Assembly: GCA_016839805.1 (NCBI GenBank)
Contig: JAEOTO010000041.1
Coordinates: 1 to 40,277 of the forward strand
Reading direction: 5' to 3'
DNA: 40,277 bases
Origin: Candidatus Hermodarchaeota archaeon
GTDB lineage: Archaea; Asgardarchaeota; Hermodarchaeia; Hermodarchaeales; Hermodarchaeaceae
Below are positions 1,622 to 40,277 of this stretch, piece by piece. Within the stretch, counting starts at the first letter, position 1. Every line of letters starts with the position of its first letter. Under the pieces are notes generated by a model that had not been told where the DNA came from, did no database searches, and was given only the letters and a program-made list of their open reading frames with translations. Position numbers and translations under genes: made by a program.

Positions 1622-1993
1622 CTATTCTTGAGGGTTTTCTTCCGAAGTTGTTATATTAATATCATTCAAGAGTTTTTGGGCGCTTTCAATATCTGCCCTG
1701 ATAAGTTCATCGATGACCTCTTCAGTGATGTCTTCATTAGTCGCTTCGATGATGACACGTCCCCAATATCCACATTTGGGACACCGATATTTGGGTGGGG
1801 TGATGCCCATGGCACCTCCTATGTCATACCAGGTTTCTCGGCTCCGGAGGGCGGGGGATTTGCATTGGGGACAAATGCGAATGGTGATGATTTTTCCTTC
1901 CTTCTTGAGGTCACCAAGTACTTGCATAAGTTGTTTAATGATCTCATCACTAGAAAGTGCATTAGAAGGTGAGGTTGATGAGTTGGGGGCCAT
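1622..1993 (-). CDS. Zn-ribbon hypothetical protein
   Basis: CPQC...CPKC pair; co-oriented with neighbours. Confidence 0.75.
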   Translation of the reverse strand: MAPNSSTSPSNALSSDEIIKQLMQVLGDLKKEGKIITIRICPQCKSPALRSRETWYDIGGAMGITPPKYRCPKCGYWGRVIIEATNEDITEEVIDELIRADIESAQKLLNDINITTSEENPQE

Positions 1994-10555: not shown

Positions 10556-11110
10556 TTACAATTCTTGGATTTGTCTACTTGCTAGCAGAAGTCCAATGAT
10601 TGATACACAATCTGTGATTTCAGAGTTCTCTATCATTTCAAGGGTTTTTTGAAGGGGGACCTTGACAATTTTGATTTCCTCAGTTTCATCAGATTTGGCT
10701 TTAGAGCGTGTAAGGCCGTTTGCTAGAAAGATATAGCCTTTATCATCCATTATGGATTTGTTTGACCGCATTGTATTGAGTAGTTCGAATGATTTTGCAC
10801 GGTATCCAATTTCTTCACGCAGTTCACGTTGAGCGGCCTCTTGAGGCGTTTCACCTTCATCCATAGCACCTGAAGGGATTTCCCAAGTGACATCTCCTTG
10901 TATATAGCGATATTGACGAACCATTACAACGGATTCAGGTTCTATGATTGGGACAATACCAACGAAATCCGTAGGTGGTACTACTACACCATAGATTGTT
11001 TCATGCCCATTTGGAAGTTGAACATTATCTTCATATACTGTAATCCAAGGATTTTGATACACACATTTTCGGTTAAGACATTTCCAAGGTTGAATAAAGG
11101 GTTTTGACAC
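10556..11110 (-). CDS. NUDIX hydrolase (ADP-ribose pyrophosphatase-like)
   Basis: Nudix box GAMDEGETPQEAAQRELREEIG. Confidence 0.92.
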   Translation of the reverse strand: MSKPFIQPWKCLNRKCVYQNPWITVYEDNVQLPNGHETIYGVVVPPTDFVGIVPIIEPESVVMVRQYRYIQGDVTWEIPSGAMDEGETPQEAAQRELREEIGYRAKSFELLNTMRSNKSIMDDKGYIFLANGLTRSKAKSDETEEIKIVKVPLQKTLEMIENSEITDCVSIIGLLLASRQIQEL

Positions 11111-11141
11111 GCAGATCCCTCCTTAGACAGCCTTTCTAATC

Positions 11142-12911
11142 TTAGCTTGCCACAGCTTCAGTGACAGTTTTTTTCTCTTTCTTCTCTTCCTCGACTGGAA
11201 GTGGTTTACAGCCTTCGAGCCACATTGACCCCACAAGCACTAATTCAGGTGGATTAAGATTGGCATCTCGATCAATGATTACATCAATGACTGCCGGTAG
11301 TTTTGATTTTACAGCCCGTTTGAGAGCCGGACGGATCTCCTTGGCGTCTGTGACACGTTCACCATAGCAGCCCATCGCTTTTGCCACTTGATCATATCGA
11401 ACATCGGTAAAGTCAACCTGGTAAAAGCGGTCATCGAAAAGGAGATGCTGCACCCCCGCTATCATTCCAAACCGCCGATCATTCGCGATTACAGCAACGA
11501 TGGGTGTGTTGTGTCGGGCAGCAGTTTCTAATTCTTGAATGTTAAACATAAAGGAGCCATCCCCGCTGATTAGATACACTTGCCGGTCAGGATGGTTAAG
11601 TTGTGCACTAATAGCATAAGGGAGGCCCGCACCTAAGTGCCCAGATTCAGTGGCACAGAGATAGGTGCGCGGTTCATAGATACGATTAATGTTTAATGTC
11701 CAAAGGTTGGTGTTACCACCATCTACCACGCTAATAGCGCGTCGGTCGAAGAAGTCACGAACCTCCTTAATAAGGCGCAGAGGATGAATTGGTTTGTCAT
11801 CTTTAGAAGCGATGTCTAGCTGGGACTGGACCCACCTATCACGGGATTGCTGGCATTGCTCAAGTAGCGTGGAGGGGGGTTTAGGTTCGCTGCGACGGGT
11901 GACCTCTGAGAGAAGGAACTGGAGAGTGCTTTTGGCATCGCCAACTAATGCTAAATCTACTTCCCGATTTAAACCGATCATATCGCCTGCAATGTCAATT
12001 TGGATAAGTTTTTGTGCATCGCTTAACTTCCAACCCGGGGGTTTCCCCCAGAAGTCAAGATCACTAAGCCGTCCGCCTACCAATAGAACGAGATCAGCAC
12101 AATTTTGGGCAAAGGCTCCCGTTTGAAGGCCGGGATTGAAAGCTAGTGCGTGATCTTCAGGAATCGAACCTCGGGCAGCGGGACTCATGCTAACTGGTGA
12201 AGATAAGTGCTCGGCGAGTTTAATGAGTTCTTCCGAGGCATTGGCCCTTAGTACACCAGAACCTGCATGAATGAGAGGAAATTCTGCTTCAAGGAGCATT
12301 TGTGCGGCTTTACCGATGAGTTGCGGATCAGCAGTGGGAGGTGTGATGCGTCGGTATCGATTTGGAGGTTGAATTTGTGGTGATTGATCAACGGTTCCAT
12401 AGAGAACATCGGAGGGAATATCAAGATGTACAGGACCAGGTCTCCCGGATAGAGCAATGCGAAAAGCATGTTGGATAAGCTGAGGAATGCGTTCAATCTT
12501 CCAAGCAACAGCATTCCATTTTACAATGGGTTTGAATAAATTAAGCTGGTCGAGAGCCTGTGTCATCCCCGTATCGGGATAAATGCGCCACGTCTGATTC
12601 TGAGCGGTAAGAACTACTATCGGAACACTATCAGCATAAGCAGCATATACGCCACCAACAAGATTCACAGCTCCTGGACCCACGGTTCCTAAGCAAATCC
12701 CGGGCTTCCTTGTTGTCCGGGCATAGGCATCGGCCATATGTGCTGCAGCAGCCTCATGCCGGGTCGTAATAAATTCGATGCCAAGTTCATCACCTTTTCG
12801 GGCAAGAACATCAAAGAAAGAATTCCATTGGTCACCGATAATTCCAAAGATATATCGGACTTGCTCATTGGCTAGACATTGGGCGAGAATTTCTCCACCT
12901 GAAATTGGCAA
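11142..12911 (-). CDS. Thiamine-pyrophosphate enzyme (acetolactate synthase large subunit-like)
   Basis: TRHEAAAAHMADAYAR, GRPGPVHLDIP, GDGSFMFN...ND. Confidence 0.92.
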   Translation of the reverse strand: MPISGGEILAQCLANEQVRYIFGIIGDQWNSFFDVLARKGDELGIEFITTRHEAAAAHMADAYARTTRKPGICLGTVGPGAVNLVGGVYAAYADSVPIVVLTAQNQTWRIYPDTGMTQALDQLNLFKPIVKWNAVAWKIERIPQLIQHAFRIALSGRPGPVHLDIPSDVLYGTVDQSPQIQPPNRYRRITPPTADPQLIGKAAQMLLEAEFPLIHAGSGVLRANASEELIKLAEHLSSPVSMSPAARGSIPEDHALAFNPGLQTGAFAQNCADLVLLVGGRLSDLDFWGKPPGWKLSDAQKLIQIDIAGDMIGLNREVDLALVGDAKSTLQFLLSEVTRRSEPKPPSTLLEQCQQSRDRWVQSQLDIASKDDKPIHPLRLIKEVRDFFDRRAISVVDGGNTNLWTLNINRIYEPRTYLCATESGHLGAGLPYAISAQLNHPDRQVYLISGDGSFMFNIQELETAARHNTPIVAVIANDRRFGMIAGVQHLLFDDRFYQVDFTDVRYDQVAKAMGCYGERVTDAKEIRPALKRAVKSKLPAVIDVIIDRDANLNPPELVLVGSMWLEGCKPLPVEEEKKEKKTVTEAVAS

Positions 12912-13479: not shown

Positions 13480-13889
13480 AAATATGTATATCCGCACAAG
13501 GTCCTACCCTTGATGCACCCATTGATCCTCGATTTGGTCGTTGTGCTAATTTCATATTCATTGATCCTGAGACAATGCAATTTAACACGATCCCCAACCC
13601 TGGAGCAATGGCAGGCGGTGGCGCAGGCATTCAAGCCGCACAATTTGTCGTTGATCAAGGAGTTTCGGCAGTATTGACCGGAAATGTTGGACCAAATGCA
13701 TATAATGCGTTGAATGCTGGAGGCGTGGCAGTGTTCATAGGAGTTTATGGAACAGTTCGAAATGCTGTTGAACAATATAAAGCGGGACAATTGAGTCCTA
13801 CATCTTCTTCGACAACACCTGCCCATACTGGAATGGGAGGCGGTAGAGGTCGGGGTGGAGGCATGGGAAGAGGAAGATATCCAGGTTAA
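13476..13889 (+). CDS. NifB/NifX-family (ORP-like) Fe-Mo cluster-binding protein
   Basis: DPRFGRCANF, GAGIQAAQ, TGNVGPNA; Gly/Arg tail. Confidence 0.9.
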   Translation: MKICISAQGPTLDAPIDPRFGRCANFIFIDPETMQFNTIPNPGAMAGGGAGIQAAQFVVDQGVSAVLTGNVGPNAYNALNAGGVAVFIGVYGTVRNAVEQYKAGQLSPTSSSTTPAHTGMGGGRGRGGGMGRGRYPG

Positions 13890-13922
13890 ATGTAAAATAG
13901 AAAGCAAGTCGGAGGAATTGAT

Positions 13923-14297
13923 ATGGTGGAACGTGTTGTAATTCCAGTATTAGATGATTCAGGTAAAACCAGTCGTCTGTCGGCACATTTCGGTCGAGCC
14001 CCGTTTTTTGCTGTGGTTGAAGTCAAAGAAGATGGGAATATTGAGAGCCTAAAATTTCTGCCTAATCGGAGTCAGCACTTAGGAGGATCGGGTCGTCCGC
14101 CGGATGTTATCCTTAGTTTTGCACCGAATGTTGTAATTACCTTTGGGATGGGCCCTCGTGCTATGCGGAGGTTCCAGGCTGAAGGTGTTGCTGTGATGCA
14201 GGCATCCTCTGAATATCTGGGGGATGTCCTTTCTGCCTTTACCCGAAATGAATTGTCTGAGCTAACTGAGGGGTGTCGTGACGCTCGTCATAAATAG
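13923..14297 (+). CDS. NifB/NifX-family protein
   Basis: SAHFGRAPFF, GMGPRA. Confidence 0.88.
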   Translation: MVERVVIPVLDDSGKTSRLSAHFGRAPFFAVVEVKEDGNIESLKFLPNRSQHLGGSGRPPDVILSFAPNVVITFGMGPRAMRRFQAEGVAVMQASSEYLGDVLSAFTRNELSELTEGCRDARHK

Positions 14298-14337
14298 TAA
14301 GGCAAAGATCCAAGGGCAACCTTAGTAGGTGTGCGAA

Positions 14338-15183
14338 GTGAATATTGCAATTGCCAGTGGTAAAGGAGGTACTGGAAAAACCTCTGTTTCCGTGAATCTT
14401 GCCCTTTCTGTACCTGGCCCAGTTCAAGTGTTGGATTGTGATGCAGACGCGCCAAATGTGCATACTTTGCTTCCGCTAAAGACCGAGGAGATAGAACCAG
14501 TTTTTACTATGATTCCTGAATTTGATGAGGTAAAATGTACACAATCAAAAAAATGTGCAGCCTTCTGTCCTAACCACGCAATCTTCGTTGGTAAAAAGGG
14601 GATTCAGTTCTTTCCTGAACTGTGCTACGGTTGTGGCGGATGTATTTTGAGCTGTCCGAATCAGGCCATCAAAGAGGGTAAACGGCAGCTGGGTGTAACG
14701 AAAAGCGGGTTAACTGCAGAAGGTGTGCAGGTTGTTTATGGGGATCTTAATGTCGGTGAACCGCTTGTTGTCCCTGTAATAAAAGCAGTCAAAAATAAAG
14801 CAAGCAAACAGAATGGAGTTACTGTAATTCTTGATTGTCCCCCTGGTGTATCTTGTCCAATGGTAGAATCCGTTCATGGTTCAGATTATTGTCTTTTAGT
14901 CACGGAACCGACACCATTTGGTTTACATGATCTGCAACTAGCAGTTGATACTATCCGTCAACTTGAAATACCAATCGGTGTTGTCGTGAATAGAGCGGGA
15001 ATTGGAGATAAACAGGTCTATTCCTATTGTGCCAGTGAGCACCTTCCAATTTTATTAGAGATTCCGCATAGCCGTAAAATTGCTGAGCTCTTTGCAGAAG
15101 GTATCCCCTTTGTCACGCAGTTACCTGAATGGCAACCCAAGTTTGAAGACCTTTTTCGCACGATTGAGGAGAGGATTGAATAA
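14338..15183 (+). CDS. MinD/ParA-type P-loop ATPase with inserted ferredoxin domain
   Basis: ASGKGGTGKT, DCDADAPN, Cys clusters, DCPPG, VTEPTPFGLHDL. Confidence 0.92.
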   Translation: MNIAIASGKGGTGKTSVSVNLALSVPGPVQVLDCDADAPNVHTLLPLKTEEIEPVFTMIPEFDEVKCTQSKKCAAFCPNHAIFVGKKGIQFFPELCYGCGGCILSCPNQAIKEGKRQLGVTKSGLTAEGVQVVYGDLNVGEPLVVPVIKAVKNKASKQNGVTVILDCPPGVSCPMVESVHGSDYCLLVTEPTPFGLHDLQLAVDTIRQLEIPIGVVVNRAGIGDKQVYSYCASEHLPILLEIPHSRKIAELFAEGIPFVTQLPEWQPKFEDLFRTIEERIE

Positions 15184-35339: not shown

Positions 35340-35355
35340 GTTAAGTGAAGACCGT

Positions 35356-35409
35356 TTAGAAGCACCGATGGGCCACGCCAGCGCCCTGCTCCACATATTC
35401 CTTTTTTGT
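35356..35409 (-). repeat. Displaced actin 3'-end, copy 4 (TKKEYVEQGAGVAHRCF*)
   Basis: Direct repeat of actin exon 3; 8 synonymous codon changes, plus M>V and I>A. Confidence 0.9.
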
Positions 35410-35468
35410 TGAAACGCGTTTGATTCATAAGGTAGTATGGAATAGTAATGTGAATAGAGGTTGGGTTT

Positions 35469-35729
35469 ATGTCCGAACAAGTGATGAACACACCAGTTGG
35501 AAAGGTCACCAACTATTACGCAAAAATCAATGTCGCCGTCATCGAATTATCCGCCCCATTGAAGAAAGGTGATGAAATCGCCATCAAGGGCGCAACCACA
35601 GAGTTCACCCAAACCGTGGAATCCATGCAAATCGAACGCGAAGACATTGAATCCGCACAATCAGGCCAAGCCATCGGATTAAAAGTCAAAGAACGGGTGC
35701 GGATAGGCGATACCGTCTATCGCATTTAA
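35469..35729 (+). CDS. Translation-elongation-factor-like small beta-barrel protein
   Basis: VGKVTNYYAKINVA...LKKGDEI.IKG.TT.F.Q.VESMQIE...VRIGD.VY. Confidence 0.85.
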   Translation: MSEQVMNTPVGKVTNYYAKINVAVIELSAPLKKGDEIAIKGATTEFTQTVESMQIEREDIESAQSGQAIGLKVKERVRIGDTVYRI

Positions 35730-35805
35730 TGGATACACAGAAGACCTTTGATTACTACTTATCGTCCTACCTCGCTGTCGTTACCAAATCTGCAAAGCAT
35801 GGGGG

Positions 35806-36228
35806 TTAGAGGGTTAACCCTCCAATCTGGCGCAAAAAGTTTGCCACATCGATGAGCTGCCAAAACTCCGCGAGTTTCTCTTCTTCGAACCGGTACAAGT
35901 TGAAGCTACTGAACTTGATTTTCTTTCCAGTAGGGGCGATGCCCTGGAACTCACCTTGATGCGTCCCAGTAACGGTAATACGCATCGCCGCGCGATCCTC
36001 TGTGGCGAAAAGATCTTCAATTGTCACATGAACGTCAGGGAGCGCTTTCAGCACTAGTTGCATAAAATCACCAACTTCCTCACGTCCCTTCACATCCACG
36101 AAAGCACCTGCCAAATCGTGCCGAACGAAACCAGATGTAACCAACCGAGGAACCACTGTTAAATCCCGATCATTGAACGCCTGAATAATTCTTCTAATAA
36201 CCGCCATATTCTCTTCTGCTGTCACCAA
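35806..36228 (-). CDS. SnoaL-like ester cyclase (NTF2-like)
   Basis: ALPDVHVTIED, GTHQGEFQGIAPTGKKI. Confidence 0.9.
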   Translation of the reverse strand: MVTAEENMAVIRRIIQAFNDRDLTVVPRLVTSGFVRHDLAGAFVDVKGREEVGDFMQLVLKALPDVHVTIEDLFATEDRAAMRITVTGTHQGEFQGIAPTGKKIKFSSFNLYRFEEEKLAEFWQLIDVANFLRQIGGLTL

Positions 36229-36324
36229 ACAACCTCCAACCCCATATCACCCAACCAATAACATATCAGCCTACCGATTAATCCCCTCACACGCAAATTA
36301 GAATCAAAGTTCTTGAAATTAGTG

Positions 36325-36369
36325 AAAAAGAAACCAAAAAAGAGAGAAAATGGGAGGACAAGCCTCCCA
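36325..36369 (-). terminator. Hairpin plus U-tract after actin 3'-end copy 3
   Basis: TGGGAGG-CTTGT-CCTCCCA then a T-rich tract. Confidence 0.7.
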
Positions 36370-36385
36370 AAAGAAAACAGCCAAT

Positions 36386-36445
36386 TTAGAAGCAGCGGTG
36401 GATAACTCCAGCACCCTGCTCCATATATTCTTTCTTTGTCACCCA
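36386..36445 (-). repeat. Displaced actin 3'-end, copy 3 (WVTKKEYMEQGAGVIHRCF*)
   Basis: Peptide identical to exon 3; 6 differences, all synonymous. Confidence 0.93.
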
Positions 36446-36478
36446 TACCTCAGTTTCGCTCAACCAGAAAAAAGAAAG

Positions 36479-36907
36479 CTAGAGGGTGACTTCAGGAGGA
36501 GAGAGGAGAAGGAATAGGTTCCTGGATGGAGTGTCTTGTATTAGTGTCCACGCACTCCAGAACCCTTCTTCCGCAATTATAGCTAGTTGAAATCCTGCAT
36601 GACTTAACTTGAGGAGGTATTCGAGATGACGCACTTGCTGGCTTAACACCCTCTGCAATTGTGGTGTATAGTCTGAGGAATGTTCGCTGGCAGTTCCCGG
36701 TAAACTCAGCTCGTGAACCCAACTTGGTAAGGATACTTCGATGATAATCTTGATGGTATCTGCCTTCTGTGGGGTATGAGCCAGAAGTACTTGAACCCAA
36801 TCTGTTTCATGGACCAGGACTATCCCTTCGTCCTCATCCTCATCCAATGAAGTCTTTGCTTTGGCACAAAAGTCCTTGCATGCTTGAACAAAGTCTGAAT
36901 ACTTCAT
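36479..36907 (-). CDS. Hypothetical protein
   Basis: ORF with plausible RBS; no motif recognised. Confidence 0.7.
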   Translation of the reverse strand: MKYSDFVQACKDFCAKAKTSLDEDEDEGIVLVHETDWVQVLLAHTPQKADTIKIIIEVSLPSWVHELSLPGTASEHSSDYTPQLQRVLSQQVRHLEYLLKLSHAGFQLAIIAEEGFWSAWTLIQDTPSRNLFLLLSPPEVTL

Positions 36908-37141
36908 TGCTCTAAGTCCTTCTCTCATTTATCTTCGACCAAGTTTTTCGGTAGCCAGTCAATGTGAGTAGGAGAAGTCAAGTCACCAGATGCAAGAGGG
37001 CAGAAGGTTACATATTAGCTGGTGTGAAATCGCCGATTTACAAAAGTACCCTGCTTTATAAGACGGGTTAACAGAATGTCAACTTAGGAATCTCCCCTTG
37101 TTTTCGAAACAGTGAGCACAATCGAACTGAATCCAACTGCA

Positions 37142-38128
37142 CTATGTTTTGGTATGAGGTTCAGATGTGTTGAATAATTGCGCCCAGAATCGTTCCTTTG
37201 GGCCAGGGTAGAAGTGGTGAGCGTAATAGATAATGGGTCGAACGGACTCAACGCCATCTAGTTCGTTGATGTGGTTGATGATTTGTGGTGAGTAATTTGC
37301 GACTTTGACAAGAAACATGGAAAAAAGAACTGGAGCGGAAGCACTAGCATAAGTAAACCAGTATTCGAGGGGATATTCGCGTTTAAGTACTTCCACAATC
37401 TTACGTCGCTTTTCATCGCCTCCACGGAATGCAATCCGGGCGAGAAAACGTGTCGAGCCACCTTCAGCGACATCATAATCGGGGCATGGATGAAAACATT
37501 GTTGGGTGGTGCGATAGTCTCCGAGGCCTTTTTCATGAAACCATGTTGCTTCTGCGGATCCATTGGTGCCAATAAGATCGGCTAAGAGTTTTCGGACGCG
37601 CCGTTGGGTTAATCGAGTGAGTTGCGCAATTTCATTGACTGACATGCGAACATCCTTTCGAAGGCACCGCAATACTTGGAGATGCATCGATGTGAGGGTA
37701 CATTTCTTTCCTTTTTCAACCAGCAGGGTATGAAATTCAATGTCATTGACCGGTTCCAGTTCATGCAAGAATAAAGTGAGTTCATCTAATTCCTTCGAAC
37801 CAACATAGTCGGCATAAATCATCACATTCCCGTCAGCGAGGAAATTAACTCTATCAATCATCGGATGTGTTCCAAGACGCTCTCGGAACTCTTCACTGGG
37901 AGGAGGGGTTGCGATATTCAGAATGGCTGTACAAAACGAGGCACCCAGCATGGCATAGCTTGGGTAGAGGTAATATCGCCGAATGACGTTGCTGGCTTCA
38001 AGATTCACCACCCGATTGCGTACGGCAGTCACCGATAACTTCAATGCCCTTCCCAAAGCCCGATAGGATGTCCGTGGATTCTCCCCTAACAACAAGAGAA
38101 TCTGTTTGTCGATAAGATCCACTGGCAT
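37142..38128 (-). CDS. Lrp/AsnC-family regulator with tandem wHTH modules
   Basis: DLIDKQILLLLGENPRTSYRALG...AVRNRV and a second LRCLRKDVRMSVNEIA HTH. Confidence 0.85.
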   Translation of the reverse strand: MPVDLIDKQILLLLGENPRTSYRALGRALKLSVTAVRNRVVNLEASNVIRRYYLYPSYAMLGASFCTAILNIATPPPSEEFRERLGTHPMIDRVNFLADGNVMIYADYVGSKELDELTLFLHELEPVNDIEFHTLLVEKGKKCTLTSMHLQVLRCLRKDVRMSVNEIAQLTRLTQRRVRKLLADLIGTNGSAEATWFHEKGLGDYRTTQQCFHPCPDYDVAEGGSTRFLARIAFRGGDEKRRKIVEVLKREYPLEYWFTYASASAPVLFSMFLVKVANYSPQIINHINELDGVESVRPIIYYAHHFYPGPKERFWAQLFNTSEPHTKT

Positions 38129-38245
38129 CCTCACACCTCCCAATGAAATAACCTATACCTTCAAAGAGTAAAAATCCTATGGGTGACCCCTATACCTCGA
38201 ACGCTGTCAGTCGGGAAACCGCTACCGCTTAACCCAGCAAAACCC

Positions 38246-38277
38246 AAAAAAAAGAGAAAAGAGGAGGCACAGCCTCC
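38246..38277 (-). terminator. Hairpin plus U-tract after actin 3'-end copy 2
   Basis: GGAGGC-TGT-GCCTCC then a T-rich tract. Confidence 0.7.
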
Positions 38278-38294
38278 CAATAGGTGAAGACCGT

Positions 38295-38355
38295 TTAGAA
38301 GCACCGGTGAATAACGCCAGCGCCTTGCTCCATATATTCTTTCTTCGTCACTCAC
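38295..38355 (-). repeat. Displaced actin 3'-end, copy 2 (*VTKKEYMEQGAGVIHRCF*)
   Basis: 6 third-position differences from exon 3 (5 synonymous, 1 TGG>TGA). Confidence 0.93.
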
Positions 38356-38649
38356 AATACGAGGGTTGTGTGGTTTTAATTGCCTATTCCTGAAAACCAT
38401 AACGCATAAAAACCAACTAAAACCGGACCCCTTGAGCGAAGAAAAAAACTCAGTGAGACTAAACCTTTGATTCATGATGGCTCAGATTGTATACAGGTTG
38501 ACGAAACAACTACTCAGACTACATATGTTTGTCTGGACACGAACGAGTTATTTTTAGGTTTTCCAATTGTAGGAAAAGTCGATCGCACGAAGGCATTGAA
38601 TATTGCTCGTTGGTTACGCCCAACACAAAATGGGAGACAAACAGTAATC

Positions 38650-39693
38650 ATGAAATCCGCTCCAAGTAAGTTGATTCAGCAGCTAGGAGCAAATAACTAT
38701 GGAAATCAATGGTTTGTTAATTCTGTTAAATTAAATCGGTTCCTGAAAACGAAATTCTTGTTCAAAACGCAGTCAAAGTTAGAATTTCCACTTACGCGAT
38801 ATATCATTGAGTGGATTAAAGCAGGCGTAGATGTAAAGCGAATAGTGTTGCTCCTACTCTTAACAGAAGGTGGTGGGAAAAAATATCGAAACATCTTCTT
38901 CTATAATCGAAACCAATTGTATCACGAGCTTTTAGTCGATTGTATATGGCAACTCACAGAAGAGCTTCCAACGAGCTATATGATACCTAGTAAATACATT
39001 ACTAAAACTGGTGAAATCCGGAACACACCTGATACTGAATATTGGCATAAGAAAATCGTCCAACTAGTCTTTGAACTCAGTCCTTCACTCAAATGTAAGC
39101 CTGCTTTACTTCAAACAAAAACAGCTTATCAAAGCGAAGCCCAACCAAATGGTGAATACCTCCTAAAAGGTACTAAACTAGAAAAGGAGTTAATGGCCCT
39201 CCTTATTATTGGAACAGAAGGATACATCACACCCTTTAATAACCAAAATGGGTTTTGTTCAGCAAATATTGGGTTTAGATGTAGTCACCCAACACTCCTC
39301 CTCCAATTTATCAGAATTTTCAGAGACATCAACATCCACATGACTCTCATCAAGGATAAGAAGAGCTTTTCAAAGCTTGGTGGAGCCCACAATTCTTCTT
39401 ATGATACTGGAAAAAAGATTCTAGAACTAATTAGGAGACACGGAGATCTTCTCGGAACAATTCACGGGAACTCAATCTTTCATGAAGGAGTAAAAAAATC
39501 TAAACTTCTCATCGCTAGTTTAGATTTCTACATAAAACAGAAATCAGGTGCACTTAATCGGAGCATTTCTAGAAAACAGTTACACGAACTTCTTAACCAA
39601 CGAATTGAATCGCAAGCATTAATGCCGATACAGGAAATACTCAAGCACTTAGATCAGAACCCTCGTATCCACCGTAATATCAGAAGCCAATAA
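38650..39693 (+). CDS. Putative free-standing LAGLIDADG homing endonuclease (double motif)
   Basis: Two LAGLIDADG-like helices, VLLLLLTEGGG...IFFYNRNQLYHELL and MALLIIGTEGYI...IGFRCSHPTLLLQFIRIF; AT-rich; ORF open from 38467, ATG 38650 preferred. Confidence 0.7.
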   Translation: MKSAPSKLIQQLGANNYGNQWFVNSVKLNRFLKTKFLFKTQSKLEFPLTRYIIEWIKAGVDVKRIVLLLLLTEGGGKKYRNIFFYNRNQLYHELLVDCIWQLTEELPTSYMIPSKYITKTGEIRNTPDTEYWHKKIVQLVFELSPSLKCKPALLQTKTAYQSEAQPNGEYLLKGTKLEKELMALLIIGTEGYITPFNNQNGFCSANIGFRCSHPTLLLQFIRIFRDINIHMTLIKDKKSFSKLGGAHNSSYDTGKKILELIRRHGDLLGTIHGNSIFHEGVKKSKLLIASLDFYIKQKSGALNRSISRKQLHELLNQRIESQALMPIQEILKHLDQNPRIHRNIRSQ

Positions 39694-39735
39694 AAAAGAG
39701 AAAGGCTGGGTGCGTTCCATTAAGGAAGCACACCC
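39692..39735 (-). terminator. Terminator-like hairpin plus U-tract of the functional actin gene
   Basis: Imperfect GGGTGTGCTTCC-TTAAT-GGAACGCACCC stem followed by CTTTCTCTTTTTT. Confidence 0.55.
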
Positions 39736-39763
39736 GTTCCTTATAGAGGGGTTCACGCAGCGG

Positions 39764-40277
39764 TTAGAAGCACCGGTGAATAACGCCAGCACCCTGCTCC
39801 ATGTACTCTTTCTTGGTCACCCACTTGCGCTGCAACTAGGTCTTCTAATTCCATATACGCTGAAAGGTTTTGAGTGACGCAAGAATTGAGCCCCCGATCC
39901 ACACCGAATACATGCGCTTTCACCCGCATACCATCAAGGTAGGCATCTGGTGGCGCAACAATCTTAACTTCGACGTTTTCGGGGATTTGTTCGATGATTT
40001 CTTTGCGGAGGCGTTCTTTGAGTCCGGGGAACATGGTGGTGCCGCCGGAGAGGACGATGTTGGCGTAGAGGTCGCGTCGGAGGTCGACGTCGCATTTGCG
40101 GACGGCTTCGACGATGGCGTCGTCGAGGGGTTGGGCTTCGACGCCGATGGCGCCTGGATTGAACAAGACTTCGGGGCCTTGGAATCGTTCGGCGCCGACG
40201 GTGAGGGTGGAGCCGTCGGGGAGCATGTATTTCTTTTCCATGCCGGCGACTTTTTCGGCGAGTTTAGTTTCTTTCTC
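39764..40277 (-). CDS. Asgard actin (Lokiactin-type), 5'-partial, spliced: exons 40277-39947, 39918-39855, 39824-39764
   Basis: YMLPDG...GAERF..PEVLFNP...CDVDLRRDLYANIVLSGGTTMFPG...KIVAPP; after removing two BHB introns it continues [41 protein letters not shown]. Confidence 0.95.
39825..39854 (-). other. 30-nt BHB intron 2 in actin mRNA
   Basis: UUCA/UGGG exon helix, GCGU/GCGC central helix, AUA and AAG bulges, AAUUAG/CUAGUU hairpin; splicing gives CGU AU|G UGG; contains an in-frame UAG. Confidence 0.88.
39919..39946 (-). other. 28-nt BHB intron 1 in actin mRNA
   Basis: UGCGC/GCGCA exon helix, CACC/GGUG central helix, AGA and AAA 3-nt bulges, internal hairpin; splicing gives CCA G|AG CGC. 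Confidence 0.9.

Follow-up and report, generated by a model that had tools for sequence, protein, structure and literature searches.

Archaeal rRNA introns that form a bulge-helix-bulge (BHB) can carry LAGLIDADG homing endonucleases, I-DmoI for example. In the HAC1/XBP1 system of eukaryotes, IRE1 performs the cutting and RtcB or Trl1 the ligation; the XBP1 intron measures 26 nt, is removed independently of the spliceosome, and its removal shifts the reading frame. XBP1 is named in PMC12530127. In Crenarchaeota, the pre-mRNA of cbf5, the dyskerin homologue, contains an intron that forms a BHB with its exon flanks, is cut by the tRNA splicing endonuclease and is rejoined (PMC2738675). Asgard tRNA genes are rich in non-canonical BHB introns (PMC11291895; bioRxiv 10.64898/2026.10.13.758758), and neither "mRNA" nor "actin" occurs in the preprint. 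The literature searched documents BHB introns in coding sequences for essentially cbf5 only (PMC2738675) and yielded no papers on BHB introns in Asgard mRNAs. This agrees with the earlier note on this DNA, which knew of no description of an actin gene split in this way.

Here, we analysed an actin gene of a Hermodarchaeia-type Asgard archaeon with two short inserts (introns 1 and 2 below, as candidates). The locus resembles the cbf5 case in that a coding mRNA is affected and the BHB is formed with the exon flanks; the cbf5 intron also shows lineage-specific gain and loss. It differs in the gene and lineage, in having two introns in one gene, of 28 and 30 nt, in being found in one genome only rather than across an order, and in the position of one intron at the insertion boundary of a LAGLIDADG-associated duplication. 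Moreover, cbf5 splicing is shown at the RNA level, whereas that of actin is predicted from DNA. The size class, the cut geometry, the host machinery (two EndA paralogues) and the repeated lineage-specific gains are shared with the Asgard tRNA introns. The two studies cited above for those introns cover tRNA genes only, whereas the actin substrate is a coding sequence, whose reading frame allows the cut sites to be verified independently. HAC1/XBP1 is comparable in its short, spliceosome-independent intron, its use of an endonuclease and a tRNA ligase, and the change of frame upon removal, but it relies on IRE1 and twin stem-loops and is regulatory and stress-induced, and nothing in actin suggests regulation. 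The rRNA introns likewise combine a BHB intron with a LAGLIDADG gene exactly at an element insertion site, but in the present case the LAGLIDADG-like gene is free-standing downstream and the 30-nt actin intron contains no ORF.

The window, i.e., the whole stretch of DNA that was analysed, is the complete contig C32 (40,277 nt) of a 2.3-Mb genome that is 87% complete. Its last 514 nt encode the C-terminal portion of actin on the minus strand (Table 1). The open frame of exon 1 ends in ...EVKIVAPP plus one extra G at its last position (39947), where the DNA reads ...GTT GCG CCA CCA G. In the ORF list the unspliced frame is KIVAPPDAYLDG..., and the other two pieces appear as separate frames of 22 and 19 residues. 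The frame break after KIVAPP and the three coding pieces, as proposed in the earlier note, match the sequence and the ORF list to the base. Exon 1 shows 95% DNA identity to congener G001. The gene runs off the contig end, and its first 312 aa correspond to contig C9:1-882. The N-terminal part on C9, which represents a slightly different strain, is uninterrupted, and the claim of at least three exons is correct as worded. C9 and C32 overlap by 219 nt with 12 mismatches, every one synonymous, indicating that the assembly broke at a strain bubble within actin. Positions 40155-40277 show 10% synonymous divergence from C9:97-219, preceded by 96 identical bases. The window bases at 40164-40176 are without support in the contigs of DNA run X1, so the last 120 nt may derive from a minor strain or from another run of a co-assembly. 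An intact actin elsewhere, which the earlier note had set, together with purely unspliced transcripts, against its own reading, was also sought. No second canonical actin 3' end or C-terminus was found elsewhere in the 87%-complete genome, and the only other actin-family relatives in it are two distant paralogues.

Table 1. Positions of the actin pieces, the candidate introns, the neighbouring elements and the related features discussed in the text (bare numbers are window positions).
Feature	Position	Strand	Basis or remark
Actin exon 1, part within window	39947..40277	-	Pfam Actin match, 107 bits
Candidate intron 1, 28 nt, frame-shifting	39919..39946	-	minimum-energy fold; blind scan; absent from congeners
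Actin exon 2 (64 nt), encodes (E)...(M), 20 residues between	39855..39918	-	translation equals that of intron-less congeners
Candidate intron 2, 30 nt, in frame, two TAG codons	39825..39854	-	fold; blind scan; absent from congeners
Actin exon 3 (61 nt including TAA), encodes (M) + 19 residues	39764..39824	-	ORF list; congener alignment
408-aa ORF, divergent double-motif LAGLIDADG-like (homing-endonuclease-like), convergent with actin	38467..39693	+	family profile search
Displaced copy 2 of actin 3' end (exon-3 equivalent, TGG to TGA)	38295..38355	-	followed by terminator hairpin 38278-38262
Displaced copy 3 of actin 3' end	36386..36446	-	followed by terminator hairpin 36369-36351
Displaced copy 4, partial, decayed	35353..35416	-	followed by terminator hairpin 35339-35323
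LAGLIDADG-like homologue beside actin, G014	L085:4114-5247	-	same position
LAGLIDADG-like homologue beside actin, G008	L086:10040-11335	+	same position
EndA catalytic-domain paralogue	C26:78271-78525		PF01974
EndA catalytic-domain paralogue	C22:24271-24531		PF01974
RtcB	C22:7173-8483		single gene
rps30e with insert	G000:C22:69472-69771		located, folded; inserts in this and the next four rows 28-42 nt
cbf5 with insert	C9:52266-52752		located, folded
dnaG with insert	C22:35225-35645		located, folded
Rab-like GTPase with insert	C17:25456-25867		located, folded
EF-2-like paralogue with insert	C22:180357-180820		located, folded
31-nt insert in actin of G016	L096:924-954		actin N-terminal part
31-nt insert in actin of Candidatus Jordarchaeum madagascariense EB_bin_7	L105, ~1855-1886		contains stop; splits WI|GG

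To define the borders of the inserts, we compared the window with intron-less actins. Uninterrupted actin 3' ends are present in congeners G004, G005, G008, G012 and G014 and in the family-level relative G016; the contig of G001 is uninterrupted as far as it reaches, 21 nt beyond the intron-1 site. Among named records, the closest are MAGs of Candidatus Hermodarchaeota and Promethearchaeota. Cuts were placed after the second nucleotide of each bulge (marked below by a bar), a rule checked against the 37/38 geometry of tRNA. As had been predicted, these cuts rebuild GAG (E, split as G|AG) and AUG (M, AU|G), with junctions at the orthologue-defined insert borders, and the aligned spliced product is letter-for-letter the C-terminus of the congeners' intron-less actins. 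Identity to G005, G008, G012 and G014 is 100% across 42 codons, counted from the split Glu codon through the stop. At the DNA level, 20-25 of the 42 codons differ between the window and the intron-less relatives, with no replacement relative to those four congeners and 3 relative to G016 (the same C-terminus was read by eye in G004, which was left out of the codon counts). Since only synonymous changes separate it from the congeners, the frame that arises only on removal of the 28-nt insert has been under purifying selection. Alternatively, the ribosome might bypass or frameshift over the inserts, as at T4 gene 60 and the mitochondrial "byp" elements. The sizes of 28 and 30 nt and the internal hairpins are reminiscent of such bypass elements, but it takes RNA joining to create the conserved Glu and Met codons, take-off and landing codons that match are absent, and the structure is a BHB with exon flanks rather than a take-off hairpin. 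We regard such translational recoding as very improbable.

Intron 1 is a strict hBHBh' motif. It comprises a 5-bp outer helix (UGCGC/GCGCA), a 4-bp central helix (CACC/GGUG), bulges AG|A and AA|A of 3 nt each on opposite strands, and an intron stem UGC-C-UACC / GGUA-U-GCG with 3 bp, a mismatch, 4 bp and a 5-nt loop. This BHB is the minimum-energy fold in two sequence contexts, with all pair probabilities >0.97 (RNAfold). The Ala codon GCG upstream of intron 1 completes the outer helix, the congeners having GCC or GCA, and this allele-specific codon is the only sign of co-adaptation with helix h of the candidate intron. Intron 2 has a central helix GCGU/GCGC, bulges AU|A and AA|G, and a stem UG-G-AAUUAG / CUAGUU-G-CA with 2 bp, a mismatch, 6 bp and a 5-nt loop. 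RNAfold supports its 4-bp helix, 5' bulge AUA and intron stem firmly (probability ~0.98). The outer helix UUCA/UGGG consists of 4 bp including two G.U pairs, and the fold with this canonical outer helix reaches -10.2 kcal/mol versus -15.5 kcal/mol for the minimum-energy fold, which has a 4x4 internal loop where the 3' bulge AAG can be drawn on paper. Because the outer helix is disfavoured, intron 2 is a relaxed (HBh'-type) rather than a strict motif; two-subunit EndA enzymes are reported to accept relaxed motifs (PMC5829648). The earlier note had assigned a helix, bulge, 4-bp helix, bulge, helix structure to both inserts, which holds for the first as its minimum-energy fold, whereas the outer helix of the second is disfavoured. 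The last 11 nt of intron 2 (39825-39835, UUGCAGCGCAA) and the last 11 nt of exon 2 (39855-39865, UUUCAGCGUAU) match at 8 of 11 positions. This resemblance could be a decayed target-site duplication or a consequence of the palindromic GCGC helix.

A strict hBHBh' scanner was run on both strands of the whole 2.3-Mb genome for lengths of 10-150. It returned 5,782 matches, ~33 per length, corresponding to 7.3e-6 per site and length. Among them are both intron intervals of Table 1, recovered to the base by this blind scan. The insert borders had been set independently by orthologue alignment, which permits one placement for insert 2 and two equivalent placements for insert 1. As the borders are fixed by intron-less orthologues and the background is low, chance is negligible, with a joint expectation of ~1e-10 for both inserts. 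For the genome-wide search for apparently frameshifted genes that had been suggested, an ORF-merging filter on the BHB matches proved too noisy, being dominated by neighbouring genes and non-coding frames. No further copies of either intron were detected in the genome, a search for guide-like 16-mers across the spliced junctions (up to 2 mismatches) gave nothing meaningful, and no Rfam families were found within the window.

The inserts are real DNA, as the first reading had supposed. A 1,729-nt Logan contig, independently assembled from DNA run X1 at a depth of 11.6, contains both of them. It runs from the second 3'-end copy of actin, across the ORF downstream of the gene and across the inserts, to position 40002, covers 39600-40002 gap-free, and shows one base difference. 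An error of assembly or sequencing, or a chimera made from the actins of two organisms, could account for the abrupt codon-usage change near 39967 and for the overlap of the contig end with another contig carrying mismatches. However, the X1 contig spans both inserts, and G004 and G012 share the local codon pattern just upstream of intron 1, so that we consider an artefact highly unlikely. Intron-less actin variants of related strains co-occur in run X1. None of the listed RNA runs contains 39740-39975; in RNA runs X8, X13 and X17, exon 1 only is covered, by transcripts of intron-less relatives whose loose ends are their C-rich exon 2, which speaks neither for nor against splicing of the present allele. 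Because the allele lies in a recombination hot spot and strain variation broke the contig end, its linkage to a complete gene is one that we infer.

The proposed EndA/RtcB route needs host enzymes, and the genome encodes two EndA catalytic-domain paralogues and one RtcB. ARAGORN called 18 of the 34 tRNA genes with introns. Several of these introns are clean BHBs of 22-33 nt, and they often have AA| as the 3' bulge, like both actin introns. We estimate a probability of roughly 80% that the inserts are mRNA introns spliced by EndA and RtcB. The anatomy of the inserts, the agreement between cuts and orthologues, the purifying selection downstream and the presence of the enzymes are established, and from them we infer cleavage and ligation. 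After transcription, each insert would base-pair with its exon flanks, and EndA, here probably a two-subunit alpha-beta enzyme, would cut after the second nucleotide of each 3-nt bulge. RtcB would then ligate the exon ends, and the joining would restore both split codons and a continuous actin frame to the C-terminus. Full-length actin thus very probably needs tRNA-style cutting and rejoining of its mRNA.

Inserts of a similar type were located and folded in rps30e, cbf5, dnaG, a Rab-like GTPase gene and an EF-2-like paralogue of the same genome. All show a 4-bp helix with a 5' bulge, and a hairpin within the intron. In rps30e, the insert is 30 nt long, contains a stop and also occurs in the nearest genome, G013; two positions distinguish the copies, and one of these changes turns a G.U into a G-C pair in the stem. 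The rps30e matches of other congeners are about 30 nt shorter, indicating that they are without the insert, and G006, the sole congener translated, encodes exactly the predicted spliced N-terminus MPGSHGSLTKAGKVRSQTPK.

We then examined the distribution of the actin inserts. At the intron-1 site, inserts of any length from 8 to 38 nt were sought with a degenerate pattern, and none was found in 399 other Asgard species genomes (400 including this one). Searching JGI metagenome contigs with the intron-1 pattern gave 45 matches, none genuine: they are either random or eukaryotic actins in which an APP motif lies upstream (in-frame gap of 30). The 70-residue read-through tail (...APPDAYLDGMRVK...) has no match, at near or longer lengths, in a 5.8-billion protein collection. 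For the intron-2 site, the distribution rests on 80 named Asgard actin loci, of which 77 are uninterrupted through both sites and 3 run off the contig. No homologous intron was found at either actin site in the genomes searched. Both candidate introns are recent, lineage-specific gains.

A tblastn census of the 80 loci revealed two other interrupted actins, both with 31-nt inserts at other sites. The first belongs to G016 (Candidatus Hermodarchaeota MAG SRR22302347_concoct_51), a member of the same family. Its insert has a helix GCAU/GUGC, bulges AC|A and AC|A, and a stem-mismatch-stem arrangement like that of the window introns, and the canonical cut restores GYPKYPAY|MTDVEHYTREYY (YPAY|MTDVEH), as in the intron-less G014. 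The second, in Candidatus Jordarchaeum madagascariense, lies between TGGAT(A) and GGGGGTTCC and folds BHB-like with z = -4.8. Its best-paired register gives a 29-nt excision that is out of frame, and the frame, with the orthologous WI|GG, is restored only by a register with one A.C pair. Repeated interruption of actin at different sites argues against inactivation and for removal.

The 408-aa ORF downstream of actin has itself no match in Pfam, NCBIfam or PDB sequences, whereas 26 of 44 sampled members of its family match PF14528 (LAGLIDADG_3) in a profile search. Two candidate LAGLIDADG-type motifs, LLLTEGG and IIGTEGY, are visible in the sequence; over the 44 family members, G135 and G252 are invariant and D134 is nearly so. 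In G014 and G008, a homologue is located at the equivalent place next to actin. The gene evolves fast (25% identity between genomes); it is always convergent to actin and separates the live 3' end from the first displaced copy. Further downstream, the last 61 nt of actin recur as three decaying copies, all of which retain the ancestral GGGAGGC...GCCTCCC terminator hairpin; the live terminator region differs from it. Congeners contain up to seven displaced copies with single cargo genes between them, namely AsnC-type double-HTH regulators, SnoaL, an LRR protein and a hydrolase. The arrays extend over 35353-39824 (-) in the window, 3988-14714 of L085 (G014:C30) and 5888-11460 of L086 (G008:C18), with spacer segments of 0.6-2.8 kb. 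The AsnC-type regulators, of ~330 aa with two HTH regions, are located at 37142-38143 (-) in the window and at L085:8722-9720, 10809-11921 and 13661-14656, and recur as cargo across the actin-3'-end arrays of different genomes.

At least nine copies in five genomes begin exactly at the G of the codon pair ATG|TGG, which is the 3' splice bond of intron 2, and we take this to be more than coincidence. The arrays look like the outcome of repeated 3'-end replacement by an inserting unit, att-like or homing-like. An origin of the displaced copies by RNA ligation of the cleaved 3' exon to other transcripts was also considered, but the opposite orientation of the first cassette gene led us to reject it as a general explanation. 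The actin gene itself is a mosaic. Its exon-1 part is 4.5-6% diverged from G001, G005 and G008 and strongly C3-biased. From about position 39967 (39764-39967), the divergence is ~20%, the C-rich third-position bias is lost and codon usage is ordinary. This ~200-nt 3' tract, whose divergence from the nearest relatives is about four times that of the remaining gene, holds both candidate introns and was probably acquired through recombination, along with the LAGLIDADG-like gene next to it.

A freshly inactivated copy in this recombination hot spot is the main rival to splicing. The window would then hold an allele that lost its function recently, or a pseudogene fragment that has been displaced; the inserts would be repair or insertion scars that killed this copy, and a working actin would lie elsewhere, unassembled. 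The array of decaying 3'-end copies directly downstream, the position of intron 2 exactly at the copy boundary, the contig end within the gene, the intron-less actins of other strains in the same sample and the restriction of the allele to one assembly lineage all speak for this explanation. However, it requires two independent scars that each form a BHB at orthologue-defined borders (~7e-6 each), and it sits poorly with the absence of replacements in exons 2 and 3 against 20-25 synonymous changes, as the true displaced copies already have stops and truncations. The start-side part is 95% identical to the congeners' chromosomal actins, a second actin C-terminus was not seen in the 87%-complete genome, and inserts of the same type occur in other actins and in rps30e. 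We consider inactivation unlikely, and splicing by EndA and RtcB remains our preferred explanation.

Actin is the emblematic eukaryote-like protein of Asgard archaea, here with two such candidate introns, and the reading frame together with intron-less orthologues makes it an unusually clean test of cut sites from sequence only. If splicing is confirmed, Asgard archaea would tolerate introns in coding genes that are essential and highly expressed, and would process them with no spliceosome; the gain of such introns would be under way at the species level, and standard gene callers would mistake the genes that carry them for truncated or frameshifted ones. How coding-gene introns arise or persist also becomes testable through the coincidence with an insertion site of the homing-endonuclease type. 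More tentatively, and with the odds against it, protein-gene intron gain in Asgard archaea might be tied to conflict with site-specific nucleases. A LAGLIDADG-associated cassette system would target the actin 3' end in this genus and repeatedly swap the last 61 nt of the gene, pushing old copies downstream. Intron 2 lies on the bond where displaced copies begin, and intron 1 lies 64 nt upstream, in the presumably imported tract. The mini-introns might be repair products of cleavage sites that survive because EndA removes them; alternatively, they might split the target and so make the allele immune. If this is true, the actin locus, together with rps30e, cbf5, dnaG, the Rab-like gene and the EF-2 paralogue, would represent living, spliceosome-free gain of coding-gene introns in the relatives of eukaryotes.
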